A DNA stretch of 13,256 nucleotides from Rhodospirillales bacterium (GCA_038143065.1 JAYQLI010000022.1:1-13256), one strand, 5' to 3'; shown: positions 6,319 to 13,053, numbered from the stretch's first letter. The notes: generated from the letters alone by a model not told the origin. Made by a program: numbers and translations.

Positions 6319-7238
6319 TCAAGCATTCAGTAATCGCATAGTTTTATCGGCCTGAATTTGACAGAAGAGCCAGTCTATAAAAACATCTAACTTCGGCTTG
6401 GGTGATGATTGTTTTTGTTTTGCTAAATACCACTTGCCTGGCTCTGGCACGGGGATATCAAAAGTTTTGCACAATCGCCCCGCTCAAGGTCGCTTGCACA
6501 GAAAGGTGCCTTGCCATACCAATACCACGGGTTTTTAAAACGGCCTCTCGAACAAGTGGGTAATTGTCAAAAATTGAGCCAAATCTCATTTCACTCTTAT
6601 CTAAGCCCACCTTATCTAGCCAGCAATCCCAGTCATCTGGCTCATTCCACGTGCAGGGGACACTCAGAAGTGTGAATTTTTTAAGCTCACCCAATTGCAC
6701 ATTATTTTTGATAGTATTTTCGACGTCTGGAGCGCATACCGGAAAAATATCTGTTTCAAATAAAGGGACATAGTCGAACCTTTTGTCGAATGGTGGTGCG
6801 TTAAACACGCCCACATCAAAGCGGTGCAAATCGTAATTACCATCCTCGAAGGTTGACACTATTCGTACACGCACGTCTGGATTGTCCTGCAGAAAATCCG
6901 CCAAGCGCGGTTGTAGCCACATCGTGTTGAAACTTGCGTATGACTGTATAAGCAAAACTTCGGGTTCTTCTTGCGTCTGAATACGCCGAGTTGCGTTGGC
7001 AATACCCTGAATATGTTCGCGTATTGACGGATAATAGTCCTCACCTGCGGGTGTTAGCTTTACTGAACGACTTGTACGATCCAGAAGTTTAACGCCAATT
7101 AAATCTTCTAACGCCCTTACTTGGTGACTGATTGCCGCTGTAGTTAAACATTTTCTTCAGCAGCCTTTCGGAAGCTTTTGTGACGTGCAACCGCCTCAAA
7201 AGCCCTCAGCAAACTATACTAGGCATGTGCGCTACCAT
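6319..7238 (-). CDS. LysR-family transcriptional regulator, GcvA-like; frameshifted
   Basis: GAGG RBS, ATG 7238. HTH region MVAHMPS..LLRAFEAVARHKSFRKAAEE..LTTAAISHQVRALEDLIGVKLLDRTSRSVKLTPAGE. Substrate domain ASFNTMWLQPRLADFLQDNPDVRVRI...DDWDCWL...GIGMAR. C-terminus PEPGKWYL...VFIDWLFCQIQADKTMRLLNA* (stop 6319). About 305 aa. Confidence 0.9.
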
Positions 7239-7373
7239 CTGCGCCTCACAAGGTTCAAAAAAAGCGACACTATGTAAGCATAATTGATGATGTAATGAAG
7301 AGCTTTCTGAAAACATTCCCGGTTTGTGAAAAAACATTGGAATTGAAGATTTATGTTTTTCGCGAAGATGATC

Positions 7374-7390
7374 GTTAACTTTTATTTAAC
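7374..7390. promoter_or_regulatory. Putative LysR binding site (T-N11-A dyad) upstream of the catabolic operon
   Basis: GTTAA-N7-TTAAC perfect dyad containing T-N11-A, in the divergent intergenic region, about 20 bp upstream of a -35-like TTGTCA (7410-7415). This is the usual position for an LTTR recognition site. Confidence 0.6.
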
Positions 7391-7471
7391 AATAAAAAAA
7401 TTGCTTCATTTGTCAAAGTGCCAGCCGAGTGCGATATCTGATGTAGAAAAGCTTTGAGAGAGAGTTTATCA

Positions 7472-9074: not shown

Positions 9075-9752
9075 ATGACGGGCAAGCAGCAACGCATTCA
9101 AGCGCTTATAAAATCTGTTATTGCCTATCGTTCCTAGGGCGCTTCGCAAGGCGTTGACCTGGTGCTGAGCAAGCTTGCAGGCATGGATTTGTCAGATAAA
9201 AATCTTGTTGATATGCCGCCCCAAAAAGCCGCCATGATGCAGTTCTGGGTAGCGCTATCGATTTGATAACGTCACCTCAATTGTCTGAAATTGCCAATTG
9301 CTTGAAAGCTGCTAAAGAAGATCTAACTTGGTGTGAAGACAATTCTGAGTTTTATTCTCCCGATGCCGATTTAGGTGCAGGTTATAAAAAATGCAATTTG
9401 CATACTTTGCTAATTGGACCGAACTCATGTGGATATTCGCAGCCTGATTTTAGCCTAGGCATTTTTATGCTCGGTCCATGGACTTTATACCGAGACCACT
9501 GTCACGACGCGCCAGAGCTTTACCTTAATCTCTCCGAGCGATCTGGTTGGCGCTTTGGCGACCAGCAATGGATGGATTATTCGGCTGGCTCGTTTTGTCT
9601 GGAATGAGGCTGGTGCTCCTCACGCTACCAGGGTTTATGGTCAGCCATTCATTTCAGTCTTTGTTTGGCTGAGAATGTGAACGCAACCTGCAATGTAATC
9701 ACTTTGACACTGGGAAGAGATTGAGCAAAAGCTGGCCAGTCAAATCATATGA
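9075..9752 (+). CDS. DMSP-lyase-family cupin protein (DddQ/DddL-like); frameshifted
   Basis: Reconstructed ~225 aa: MTGKQQRIQALIKSV...LSKLAGMDLSDKNLVDMPPQK...LSEIANCLKAAKEDLTWCEDN...LHTLLIGP...DFSLGIFMLGPWTLYRDHCHDAPELYLNLS...WRFG...SFVWNEAGAPHATRVYGQPFISVFVW...EEIEQKLASQII*. Cupin motif 1 is Y-x-x-H-x-H-x-x-x-E-x-Y and motif 2 is PHA...P...W, as in DddQ/DddL-type lyases. Confidence 0.75.
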
Positions 9753-9763
9753 GGCTTTGAAAC

Positions 9764-11872
9764 ATGTTTTCCATCACAAAGAAGCAGGGGATAGCTCTCA
9801 TTGAGTTGAATTCTCCGCCAGTTAACGCTCTTGATCTGAAGATGCGGAAGGCACTTTCAGCCAGCATTGCTGAACTGGGAACTGATGATGAAATAAAAGC
9901 CATGGTATATGTTCGGCCTTGCCGGTGTTTGTGGTGGCGCCGATATCAATGAGTTCCAAACTGGGCAATTATGGGAAAAGCCTGACCTACCTGATCTGTG
10001 TTTGGCTATTGAAAATAGCATAAAACCTGTAATTGCAGCGATAGTGGGAGCTGCAATGGGAGGTGCGCTAGAAGTCGCACTTGCTTGTGATTATCGCGTC
10101 GCTAGTGAGGACGCTGTGATGGGTCTACCTGAGATCAAATTGGGGCTACTACCTGGTTCAGGCGGCACACAACGACTACCACGAATTGTGGGGCTAGAAG
10201 TGGCAACGCGGATGATCTCTCGGGTGATCCCGTGAAAGGTGAATACGCCCTGTCTTGCGGATTGGTTGACGCGCTGTTTGAGAATGACCAAGATTTTAGC
10301 ACGCATGTTTTGGACTTTGCTACCCGTGTCAGCCATGAGGGCGATCCAAAACGCAGTTGTGAGGATATGACCGTCAAACACCCTGATCCAAGGGTTTCTG
10401 AGGGAATTCCGAGACCAGATAGCGCAAGTCCAAAAACCTTGTGGCCCCTGAGCGTTGCTTGGAATCCATCAAGGCTGCGTGTGAATTTGCCGATGGTTGA
10501 GGGTTGGCACAAGAGAAGAAGGCAGGTTTCGCCGAACTGCTCGACACACCTCATCGCGGCGCGGGCCGTCACCTGTTCTTTGCAGAGCGTGAATGCACAA
10601 AGATTCCGGGCGTTACCCGTGCGGATCAGCCACGTGACATTACATCGGTCGCCGTGATTGGTGCCGGAACAATGGGTCGTGGCATTGCCATCGCTTTCTT
10701 CAGGCTGGGTATCCGGTCGCTCTTCTGGAAACTGCGCAAGGCGCGCTCGAACTGGGACTGGAAAAGGTCCGAGAGCATTTCCAGCGCGCGAGCCAAAAAG
10801 GGCGGCTCAGTGCCGATCGGGCAGAGGCAATCGCCGCCAACGCCACCGGGACGCTCAGCTACGGCGACCTTGCAGCGGCCGACCTAATCATTGAAGCGGC
10901 GTTTGAAAGCATGGATGTCAAACGCCAGATTTTTGAAGCCCTGGACCGACACGCAAAACCTGGCGCGATACTGGCCTCAAACACATCGACATTGATCTTG
11001 ATGAAATCGCCGCAGTCACATCACGTCCGGAGGATGTGGATTCCCATTTCTTCAGCCCGGCGAATGTCATGCGCTTGCTGGAGGTGGTGCGGGCGCCAAG
11101 ACCGCTCCCGAAGTCATTGCAACGGCAATCACGGTCGCAAAGAAGATCCGAAAGCTCCCTGTCACGGTTGGCGTGTGCTACGGCTTTGTTGGAAACCGGA
11201 TGCTGGAACCATACTTCCGCGAAGGATCCCGTCTGCTTCTAGAGGGGGCGACGCCGAAACAGGTGGATGACGTCCTTGAAGGCTTCGGCATGGCCATGGG
11301 CATTCATGCGATGGCAGATCTGGCCGGAGTCGATGTGGGCGCACGCGTGCGTCAGGAACGGAGTATTGAAATCGCGCATGACCCGACATACCAGGCTGTG
11401 CAGGACAGGTTGTTTGAACTAGGCCGACTGGGTCAGAAAACCGGGCGAGGAAGCTATGTCTACGAGGGGCGGACACGGGTCGAAGACCCAGAGATTGTTC
11501 AAATCAGTGCCCATTTGGCGGACTTTCATGGCGTGAACGCAGGGAAATCGACGATCAGGAAAATCCTTGAGCGTTGTTTGTTCCCCCTGATCAACGAGGG
11601 CTTCTTGATCCTTGAGAGAAATTGCAACGCGCCCGGGTGATTGCGACCTGATCTGGGTCAATGGCTATGGCTTCCCAAACTGGCGCGGCGGCCCGATGCA
11701 CTATGCCGATGAGATTGGATTAAGTCAGATTTTGGAACGCATGACCCACTATCGGCAGTCGCTAGGTACCTATGGTGAGATGTGGTTCACGCCTGCGCCT
11801 TTGCTGGAACAACTTGCAACCTCGGGCGTGACACTTGACGCACATTTTGATGCCAAAAAGGAAAAATCATGA
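9764..11872 (+). CDS. Bifunctional enoyl-CoA hydratase / 3-hydroxyacyl-CoA dehydrogenase (PimF/FadB-like); frameshifted
   Basis: Crotonase domain: [54 protein letters not shown] domain: [83 protein letters not shown]. About 700 codons. Confidence 0.92.
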
Positions 11873-13053
11873 GAGAAGCCGTTATCGTCTCAACCGCACG
11901 AACCCCCATTGGGGTTGCCTTCAAAGGTGCGCTGAACAACATCAAGTCCCCTACCATGATGGGGCACGCCATGCAGCACGCGGTTGAACGTGCAGGCGTG
12001 GACCCCGGTTTGATCGAAGATGTTGTCATCGGATCGGTCCTGACTGCGGGAACAGCAGGCATGAATGTCGCTCGTTTGTCGGCGCTGGCTGCGGGCCTTC
12101 CCAATACGGTGGCAGGACAGACGATCGACAGGCAATGCTCCTCCGGGTTGATGGCCATTGCGACGGCTGCAAAGCAGATCATCGTGGATGGTCAGAATGT
12201 CGCCGTGGCTGGCGGGCAGGAGAATATTTCCGCCCTGCAGAATGCCTATTTGAAATGGGCGGGCGATGAGAAAGATCCAAATGTTATCGCCCGATCTGAG
12301 CATGCCTACATGCCGATGCTGATGACGGCGGAAAATGTGGCTAGGACCTATGGGATAAGCCGTGACGCCCAGGATGAATACGCAGCACTGTCGCAGGAAC
12401 GAACTGCACATGCACAGGCAGCTGGCGCCTTTGAAGACGAGATCGTCCCGATCAATGCGATAAAGCGGGTCAAGAACCGCGAAACCGGAGAGGAAACCCA
12501 GGAAGAGGTGACCTTATCAAAAGACGAAGGCAACCGGCCGGGTACAACGGCTGAAACACTTGGGGCATTGAATCCGGTTGTCGAAGGCGGCGTGATCACA
12601 GCCGGAAACGCAAGCCAGCTTTCTGATGGGGCTTCAGCCTGTGTGATCATGGAAGGCAAAATGGCTGAGCAACAGGGCCTCACACCGCTGGGTATCTATC
12701 GCGGTATGGCAGTTGCAGGAAACGCACCGGAAGAGATGGGGGTCGGCCTGATTTATGCTATTCCAAAGCTGCTCAACAATGTCAGGTCTGCAAATTGATG
12801 ATATTGGACTTTGGGAACTTAACGAAGCCTTCGCCTGCCAAGTCCTCTATTGCCGAGATCGCCTTGGTATGACCCAGAAATTTATAATGTGAATGGCGGT
12901 GCCATATCAATCGGTCACCCGTATGGTATGACAGGGGCAAGACAAGTTGGACACGCTCTACTTGAGGGTAAGCGCCGTGGCGTGAAATACGTGGTCACAT
13001 CCATGTGCGTTGGTGGAGGTATGGGAGCCGCCGCTTTGTTTGAGGTTGTGTGA
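11869..13053 (+). CDS. Acetyl-CoA C-acyltransferase (3-ketoacyl-CoA thiolase, PimB-like); frameshifted near 12790-12860
   Basis: [15 protein letters not shown]; catalytic [58 protein letters not shown] overlap with the upstream gene. Confidence 0.95.

Follow-up and report, generated by a model that had tools for sequence, protein, structure and literature searches.

A divergent, mosaic copy of the DMSP-inducible dddU gene cluster in a low-GC alphaproteobacterium outside the Roseobacter group

We analysed a stretch of 13,256 nucleotides (nt) from a Rhodospirillales bacterium (GCA_038143065.1, JAYQLI010000022.1:1-13256; hereafter the window), which is the entire contig C22 of a 4.63-Mb assembly of 52 contigs. 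Its right half carries a LysR-family regulator gene and, divergent from it, genes for a coenzyme A (CoA) ligase, a cupin of the DMSP_lyase family, a hydratase/dehydrogenase fusion and a thiolase. Judged by its gene families, gene order and sequence, the locus is a divergent copy of a cluster of known kind, the published dddU cluster, which is inducible by dimethylsulfoniopropionate (DMSP). DMSP is an algal sulfur compound and its cleavage product dimethyl sulfide (DMS) a climate gas. A first-pass annotation of the window had proposed an organosulfur catabolic operon built on a DMSP-lyase-family cupin, which matches the published cluster; it had also held that no operon with this combination was described, and this is contradicted by the same cluster having appeared in 2023. 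Since the cluster is already in print, the window scarcely lengthens the list of systems that make DMS. What is new is the low-GC alphaproteobacterial host outside the Roseobacter group, the occurrence of two copies in its genome and the mosaic nature of the window copy.

The published cluster comprises eight genes (IEX10_RS05385-RS05420) in Amylibacter/Neptunicoccus cionae H-12 (Wang et al. 2023, Environ Microbiol 25:1238, PMC11497337). The genes encode acetyl-CoA C-acyltransferase, enoyl-CoA hydratase, DddU (annotated in H-12 as belonging to the DMSP lyase family), a fatty-acid-CoA ligase, a LysR regulator and a three-gene ATP-binding cassette (ABC) transporter, and the DMSP-induced set is named 'ddd-acu'. 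All eight are strongly upregulated by 5 mM DMSP, deletion of dddU cuts DMS production by half, cloned dddU complements the mutant, and recombinant DddU and several homologues convert DMSP to acrylate (PMC11497337). A further paper cites dddU as the known cupin lyase of N. cionae H-12 (PMC13543886). The first-pass annotation had made its proposal depend on induction by, or activity on, a sulfonium compound, and the published cluster has both, being DMSP-induced and encoding a cupin that cleaves DMSP (PMC11497337). Among the papers from 2023 on that were listed for dddU with acyltransferase, hydratase or ligase, this was the only one to contain dddU, and no paper was found that joins dddL, thiolase and enoyl-CoA hydratase.

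The window locus and the H-12 cluster share gene families, order, orientation and catalytic and metal-binding residues, and in a quick tree their cupins fall in one clade. We used a genome of N. cionae (locus L023) as a stand-in for H-12; its order is OpuAC-type solute-binding protein, permease, ATPase, LysR on the minus strand, ligase, cupin, FadB and thiolase. The window cupin, through a proxy, is 69-70% identical to that of L023, and the ligase about 76%. The two differ in that the H-12 cluster includes the ABC transporter whereas the window copy has none adjacent, in that the 3' part of fadB and the thiolase of the window are nearer to Roseobacter versions (93-96% amino acid identity over the in-frame part of the thiolase), giving a mosaic, and in that the window host is a low-GC non-Roseobacter alphaproteobacterium with two copies in its genome.

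An in-frame fragment of 131 amino acids (aa) from the window cupin scores 61 bits against PF16867 (cut-off 27; 60.6 bits in a genome-wide profile scan), which confirms the family assignment made in the first-pass annotation. The window gene being frameshifted, it was compared through a proxy, P0001, an intact 228-aa public protein that is 98% identical to the in-frame fragment. In an alignment of 18 homologues (A1), residues H146, E150, Y152 and H185 (P0001 numbering) are invariant, and the motifs HCHDAPELY and PHATR can be read in the reading frames of the window. Mutations at His146, Glu150, Tyr152 and His185 nearly abolish the activity of the Phaeobacter homologue PiDddU (PMC11497337). P0001 matches the N. 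cionae cupin at 70% identity by tblastn; alignment A3 gives 69%.

A quick tree by maximum likelihood, with 76 rows, places all cassette-linked cupins, including that of N. cionae, in one clade of 49 rows with an SH-aLRT support of 84; the thorough search was incomplete, cupin open reading frames (ORFs) shorter than 180 aa were excluded, and a DddQ-like cupin of the host served as the only outgroup, with no DddL, DddW, DddK or DddY. The sister clade (SH-aLRT 100) consists of cupins that keep only the LysR of the cassette and beside which a fatty-acid hydroxylase and a family-5 solute-binding protein are usually encoded. An exhaustive protein search gave 756 representative proteins at E<=1e-3, just 31 of which reach E<=1e-30, so that the DddU-like group is small.

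DddU is less than 15% identical to any reported lyase and about 13% identical to DddQ (PMC11497337). The two share PF16867, the cupin metal motif and a proposed Tyr-initiated beta-elimination (DddQ structure PDB 5cu1; the paper compares 4LA2). DddU is about 228 aa long with a long N-terminal extension, unlike DddQ, and we found no close full-length similarity of the window-type cupin to solved DddQ: only 76 residues (132-207) align with 5cu1 at E=1e-5, and 4b29 gives E=0.77. An identity with DddL, guessed from the length of 228 aa, was dropped after the description of DddU in PMC11497337. The host genome encodes a third PF16867 cupin, on its main contig (C35:1848352-1848768, minus strand, locus L092), with an intact frame of 186 aa, a score of 147 bits and an HxHxxxxExY-type motif. 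Its match to the Pfam model is much stronger than that of either DddU copy, and it is probably DddQ-like.

The arrangement recurs in other genomes. A first scan with the cupin fragment returned one metagenome-assembled genome (MAG), with a ligase-cupin pair and no hydratase or thiolase after it, while a second scan with alignment A1 returned 80 loci. By tblastn, 28 of the 80 have LysR on the minus strand followed by ligase, cupin, hydratase/dehydrogenase fusion and thiolase in the order and orientation of the window, which answers in the affirmative the question of synteny raised in the first-pass annotation. Among these 28 are loci of Ruegeria, Aliiroseovarius, Roseovarius, Shimia, Leisingera, Boseongicola, Pseudaestuariivita and Neptunicoccus, and also of MAGs that bear the labels Cocleimonas and Pseudomonadales. 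All ORFs in the 80 loci were clustered and the common clusters annotated with Pfam (four loci lacked a called cupin ORF), and gene content was judged in the 49 loci whose flanks reach 1.7 kb or more upstream and 4 kb or more downstream, the other 31 being excluded for short flanks. Ligase, FadB and thiolase occur together in 22 of these 49. Among the 22 complete loci, LysR is present in 21, an ABC transporter of OpuAC type (glycine-betaine family) in 19, an AraC regulator together with an acyl-CoA dehydrogenase beyond the thiolase in 10, a fatty-acid-hydroxylase-family gene in three and an extra stand-alone hydratase in one.

The ligase-cupin pair is the conserved core of the dddU cluster and is retained in loci that lack FadB and thiolase or have other versions of them (L010/L011, L047, L049-L051). 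Cupins of the DddU clade are also found without ligase, FadB and thiolase, as in L033, L039, L040 and L045, where no ligase lies within 8 kb. Because such cupins occur without CoA enzymes, we infer that the cupin probably acts on a free acid such as DMSP. The absence of an acyl-CoA dehydrogenase, on which the first-pass annotation laid weight, is true within the window, but the contig ends 203 nt past the thiolase. The AraC/acyl-CoA dehydrogenase pair that follows the thiolase elsewhere has no close homologue in this genome.

Some loci show other company for the cupin. Pseudothioglobus and gammaproteobacterial single-cell loci (L047, L049, L050, L051) carry a co-oriented string of seven genes, namely a 3HCDH-ECH fusion with the dehydrogenase first, a thiolase, an NMO-family protein, a DUF2889 protein, a second AMP-ligase, the ligase and the cupin, with a TauE-family sulfite exporter gene downstream. 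Their fusion is non-orthologous and their thiolase 36% identical to that of the window, which suggests independent recruitment of the same enzyme set. In L033 and L063 (a single-cell genome and a MAG of Rhodobacteraceae/Rhodobacterales) a DddU-clade cupin without ligase, FadB or thiolase has as neighbours a Cys/Met pyridoxal-phosphate enzyme, a creatinase/M24 peptidase-family protein, a PhyH dioxygenase, an arylmalonate-decarboxylase-family protein and the same betaine-type ABC transporter as in the complete loci. Sister-clade cupins, 53-57% identical (L054-L056, L058, L059), keep the divergent LysR and have no CoA enzymes; their usual neighbours are genes for a family-5 solute-binding protein and for a member of the fatty-acid-hydroxylase family (PF04116), and the same hydroxylase gene also lies beside the full cassettes of Leisingera and of contig C3 of the host. 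More distant cupins, 47-52% identical (L066, L069, L071, L073, L074, L076), lie beside a GMC oxidoreductase and/or an aldehyde dehydrogenase, a pair that resembles choline-to-betaine oxidation (BetA/BetB-like) and that in L069 directly precedes the cupin; some of the more distant cupins stand alone.

The coordinates of the window features are given in Table 1. Pfam assignments on every gene bear out the divergent LysR followed by four co-oriented, packed genes of the first-pass annotation, as does the sequence for two of its junctions: the cupin stop TGA (9750-9752) and the fadB ATG (9764-9766) are separated by 11 nt, and the fadB stop and thiolase start overlap in ATGA at 11869-11872. A gap of 2 nt had been claimed between ligase and cupin. 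An ATGA is present there at 9075-9078, and an alternative ligase TGA at 9071-9073 would by count of bases leave 1 nt before the cupin ATG. Of 20 intact homologous loci, 15 show an overlap of exactly 4 nt between the stop of the ligase and the start of the cupin, so the window ligase, too, more likely ends with the TGA of this ATGA, in an overlap rather than a short gap. For the ligase start, TTG 7454 and ATG 7472 are candidates.

Table 1. Features of the dddU-type locus in the window (positions counted from the first nucleotide of the window)
Feature	Position	Strand	Basis and remarks
LysR-family regulator (GcvA-like)	6319..7239	-	Pfam HTH_1 and LysR_substrate; divergent from operon; at least 2 frameshifts
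Divergent intergenic region LysR/ligase	7240..7453		presumed promoter and operator, from position only
AMP-forming acyl-CoA ligase, PRK06187 subfamily	7454..9078	+	Pfam AMP-binding and AMP-binding_C; at least 3 frameshifts
dddU-type cupin, DMSP_lyase family, expected 228 aa	9075..9752	+	PF16867; at least 2 frameshifts and small deletions
FadB'/MFE-1-type enoyl-CoA hydratase and (S)-3-hydroxyacyl-CoA dehydrogenase fusion	9764..11872	+	ECH_1, 3HCDH_N, 3HCDH; many frameshifts
3-Ketoacyl-CoA thiolase	11869..13053	+	Pfam Thiolase_N (222 bits) and Thiolase_C; frameshifted near 12800
Left arm, 31-nt inverted repeat around cassette	5969..5999		repeat search
Right arm, same 31-nt inverted repeat, just beyond thiolase	13110..13140		repeat search

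The Ruegeria atlantica LysR matches the window by tblastn in three pieces (6322-7209, 69-95% identity). The first-pass annotation had called the regulator GcvA-type; a divergent LysR is upheld by Pfam, and the finer label is left in doubt by the score of the C3 paralogue against NCBIfam GcvA NF008352, 233 bits under a cut-off of 288. Matches to the ligase span 7454-9044 in pieces, and against NF004837 its intact MAG homologue from L010 reaches 569 bits (cut-off 476), while its 386 bits against the DmdB equivalog NF005426 stay under the cut-off of 822. The FadB orthologue of N. cionae matches 6ium (hydratase/isomerase) at 653 bits, the peroxisomal bifunctional enzyme at 498 and the FadB complex subunit 1wdk at 360; against the FadB/FadJ equivalogs the window protein, of which only fragments could be scored, stays far under the cut-off. 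For the thiolase the best NCBIfam model is NF005494, and identity is 87.6% to Ruegeria atlantica over 396 aligned positions and 93-96% to Roseobacter loci over the in-frame 315 aa. Its nearest structures, 8gqg and the '3-ketoacyl-CoA thiolase 2' entries 2c7y and 2wu9 (presumably plant enzymes), point to a degradative thiolase. By these comparisons the ligase, the FadB-type protein and the thiolase are generic beta-oxidation types. A complex prediction for ligase and cupin (alignments A2 and A3, N. cionae first), run without controls, gave a score of 0.01 and a mark of 0.32, which speaks neither for nor against binding.

None of the window cassette genes (6319-13053) is an intact ORF. ORFs of at least 300 aa cover 7% of C22 compared to 52% of the 2.86-Mb contig C35, and every small contig of the assembly is poor in long ORFs. 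Read against P0001, the cupin break near 9230 corresponds to one A missing in an A-run and that near 9590 to one T extra in a T-run. Because the small contigs are all ORF-poor, P0001 is intact and the two cupin indels lie in homopolymers, we treat the breaks as most likely sequencing errors of long reads.

The main-contig RecA is closest to Hyphomicrobiales-type Alphaproteobacteria (best 81%), and the host is accordingly placed, on sequence grounds, as a low-GC, non-Roseobacter alphaproteobacterium. A gammaproteobacterial host had been assumed from the closest MAG matches and was ruled out by this RecA. No DddU homologue was found at E<=1e-10 in 36 family relatives, of which 31 have a completeness of 90% or more and a contamination of 5% or less. 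A second copy of the cluster lies on the minus strand of contig C3 (C3:46-12210, locus L009) and holds the OpuAC transporter, a fatty-acid-hydroxylase gene, LysR, ligase, cupin, an extra stand-alone enoyl-CoA hydratase, FadB and thiolase. Its protein segments are 89-95% identical to those of Ruegeria atlantica and other Roseobacter loci, and its GC content is 0.52-0.55 compared to 0.435 in the remainder of the contig.

The window copy is not uniform. From LysR through ligase and cupin into the 5' end of fadB, the GC content is 0.45-0.49 and DNA identity to Roseobacter loci 72-78%; for the 3' part of fadB and the thiolase the values are 0.55-0.56 and 89-93%. Relative to C3, the 3' fadB piece is 93% identical and the fadB-thiolase segment 9974-13042 90% overall. 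The breakpoint lies at about 9974-10400 within fadB: leftward the GC content is about 0.46 and identity to C3 72%, rightward about 0.56 and 90%. The window copy therefore reads as a mosaic that would stem either from recombination between the two copies or from an assembly chimera.

The simplest account is that the cluster was acquired horizontally and that its two copies then recombined, a chimeric assembly or a mis-binned contig being the less probable alternatives. Acquisition is suggested by the lack of a homologue in all 36 relatives, by the flanks of C22 and C3, which are not shared with relatives, by the GC contrasts and by a tRNA 3' half at the C3 boundary. The latter, C3 ~12505-12555 (locus L183 ~505-555), is a stretch of 51 nt that reads as CAT anticodon loop, T-arm and CCA, matches many genomes (91-98% over 45-55 nt) and looks like an island attachment-site remnant; ARAGORN called no tRNA in the window, L009 or L183, the tRNA half being a reading of the sequence by eye.

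We consider it probable, though by some way not certain, that the window holds a copy of the DMSP-inducible dddU cluster that handles acrylate as its CoA ester, was acquired horizontally and owes its breaks to sequencing. In such a pathway the GcvA-like LysR would control the divergent operon. DddU, a metal-dependent cupin, would eliminate DMS from DMSP by beta-elimination to leave acrylate, as shown for the orthologous cluster. The AMP-forming ligase, presumably translationally coupled to the cupin, would make acryloyl-CoA, and the hydratase domain would turn this into 3-hydroxypropionyl-CoA, clearing a toxic intermediate. A formal continuation through the dehydrogenase domain and the thiolase would lead to 3-oxopropionyl-CoA and on to acetyl-CoA and formyl-CoA, a course for which we know of no precedent, though no search for one was made. 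The cluster would have arrived by horizontal transfer and would now sit in repeat-rich DNA unshared with relatives, in two copies, of which the window copy is without the betaine-type transporter. Known acrylate routes (PrpE/AcuI/AcuH and AcuN/AcuK/DddA/DddC) and DmdBCD demethylation, as given in PMC5395565, likewise place a CoA ligase and an enoyl-CoA hydratase after the DMSP lyase, with acryloyl-CoA the likely shared intermediate; AcuI, unlike in the known AcuI route, is missing from the window-type cluster. The first-pass annotation had put the thiolase and the dehydrogenase domain outside all known acrylate routes; that point stands, and the main text of the 2023 paper is silent on it.

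Several observations weigh against this explanation. The closest solved structure to the N. cionae ligase orthologue is the acyl-acyl carrier protein (ACP) synthetase 8hsy (549 bits), which we take to be the medium-chain-type enzyme of Vibrio harveyi, ahead of 6ihk/6ijb (300 bits), presumably DmdB; identity of the ligase to the acrylate ligase PrpE is just 25% (PMC11497337). The known acrylate and DmdBCD routes use neither a 3-hydroxyacyl-CoA dehydrogenase nor a thiolase. The paper likens the thiolase to AcuN, both as 'CoA-transferase family III' (PMC11497337), and because Pfam places the gene in Thiolase_N/Thiolase_C, in conflict with that comparison, the analogy behind the proposed acrylate role looks unsound. 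PiDddU acts weakly on DMSP (Km 8.0 mM and kcat 0.7 per s, for a kcat/Km of 88 per M per s), and H-12 fails to grow with DMSP as its only carbon source (PMC11497337); DMSP may therefore not be the best substrate, and the cluster may not be assimilatory. The window cupin is at or just below the identity criterion of >70% that the paper sets for DddU, and its proxy forms a long basal branch, unplaced within the 49-row clade of the quick tree. For the OpuAC-type solute-binding protein, permease and ATPase there is no match on C22, while all three occur on the C3 copy. All genes of the window copy are frameshifted, and the copy could be decaying.

This last point leads to the alternative that the window copy does not work, or is not one molecule, being a decaying paralogue beside the C3 copy or an assembler chimera of two cassettes. 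Every gene is broken, identity to C3 (72%/90%) and GC content jump inside fadB, C22 and C3 both end just past the thiolase, the contamination of the bin is 5.5% and the window has no transporter. Against this stand small contigs that are all equally ORF-poor, an intact P0001 at 98% identity and two indels in homopolymers. Compared with C3, the 3' segment shows mainly substitutions (70 mismatches, with 29 gap positions, over 1489 nt) and is therefore not simply C3 sequence. We regard a non-working or composite copy as quite improbable.

Other alternatives concern the substrate. In a route that builds on the proposal of the first-pass annotation, a longer 3-hydroxy sulfonium acid such as gonyol would be the native substrate and would be ligated to CoA, oxidised by the 3-hydroxyacyl-CoA dehydrogenase domain and thiolysed to acetyl-CoA and DMSP-CoA; the cupin would free DMS, the hydratase would take acryloyl-CoA, and activity on DMSP would be a side activity, with induction by DMSP the effect of a shared effector. 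Such a route gives a role to every enzyme, including the dehydrogenase domain and the thiolase, which are idle if acrylate is the starting point, and needs no acyl-CoA dehydrogenase, of which none is in the eight-gene induced set (PMC11497337); the one that follows the thiolase in other loci has no close homologue in the genome. It would fit a ligase nearest to 8hsy, the betaine-type transporter linked to the cluster, and the Pseudothioglobus-type loci, which join ligase and cupin to a non-orthologous fusion and a distant thiolase. A DddU that is weak on DMSP and an H-12 that does not grow on it (PMC11497337) would agree as well, and the bacterial route for gonyol is given as unknown in PMC7221440. 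The catabolism of carnitine in Sinorhizobium meliloti would be a nitrogen analogue, with no lyase cupin. There, breakdown is said to pass through a CoA ester, 3-hydroxy oxidation and a betainyl-CoA thiolase-type cleavage. However, neither our results nor the literature consulted ties the cluster to gonyol, cupins of the DddU clade occur with LysR only or alone and hence function without CoA enzymes, and DMSP is itself an inducer of the cluster and undergoes cleavage in vivo (PMC11497337). In the one study of bacterial gonyol use, three strains gave neither DMS nor methanethiol from gonyol and a fourth methanethiol only, and one strain used all the gonyol supplied (PMC7221440). We find the gonyol route unlikely, if less so than a dead or composite copy. 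The ligase might instead act first on DMSP itself, and DddU on DMSP-CoA to give DMS and acryloyl-CoA, as DddX does, the weak activity on free DMSP being an in-vitro artefact of the wrong substrate. The ligase-cupin pair is the most conserved, has overlapping codons and persists without FadB and thiolase, and the alpha-proton of a thioester is more acidic than that of a carboxylate. The low kcat/Km of DddU on free DMSP (PMC11497337) and the precedent of CoA-dependent DMSP lysis in DddX and DddX-like enzymes (PMC13543886) point the same way. Set against this, DddU as a recombinant protein turns DMSP into acrylate on its own and the mutant can be complemented with cloned dddU (PMC11497337), and same-clade cupins occur without a ligase within 8 kb (L033, L039, L040, L045). 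To this route we give the least credence of the three. A broader form, in which DMSP is not the physiological starter and a CoA-dependent route takes a longer sulfonium acid (e.g. gonyol) through DMSP-CoA with DddU acting on the thioester, is doubtful too, though the least improbable of these alternatives. If true, it would explain the poor kinetics of DddU, the lack of growth of H-12 on DMSP and the conservation of the dehydrogenase domain and thiolase, and would yield the first catabolic genes for gonyol-type algal sulfonium compounds.

Returning to the dddU cluster as a DMSP-cleaving system, a Roseobacter-like copy (89-95% protein identity) in a non-Roseobacter alphaproteobacterium suggests that such clusters move between lineages, and the mosaic window copy suggests that copies can recombine. 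Across many genera a dehydrogenase domain and a thiolase are kept beside a weak DMSP lyase, and none of the published acrylate and DMSP routes calls for them. The substrates of these two activities would define either a new fate of DMSP carbon or the true substrate of DddU.

The cassette lies in repeat-rich surroundings. The arms of the 31-nt inverted repeat around it are 90% complementary with 7110 nt between them, BLAST extends the match to about 85 nt at 78%, and similar copies occur on contigs C39 and C27. The 28 nt at window positions 13195-13222 recur without mismatch at C3:12671-12698, immediately beyond the C3 cassette. An Rfam scan of 5900-7500 gave nothing. Further left, a 35-nt inverted repeat (3795-3829/5272-5306, 97% complementary) surrounds a 1.4-kb segment with an EamA-family transporter fragment, and another repeat (3874-4191, about 315 nt) occurs twice on C3, where the two copies are inverted relative to each other, 93% identical and separated by about 7.5 kb. 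An open frame of 197 codons at 5513-6106 on the minus strand recurs on several contigs and has weak matches in genus relatives; its reading by eye as a tyrosine recombinase C-terminus was dropped, Pfam and PHROGs having given nothing. At 258-2250 on the minus strand a TRAP transporter is represented by frameshifted pieces of DctQ, which scores below cut-off, and of DctP, which scores just above it; nowhere else in the left flank are there DNA matches in relatives, here at 67-71%.

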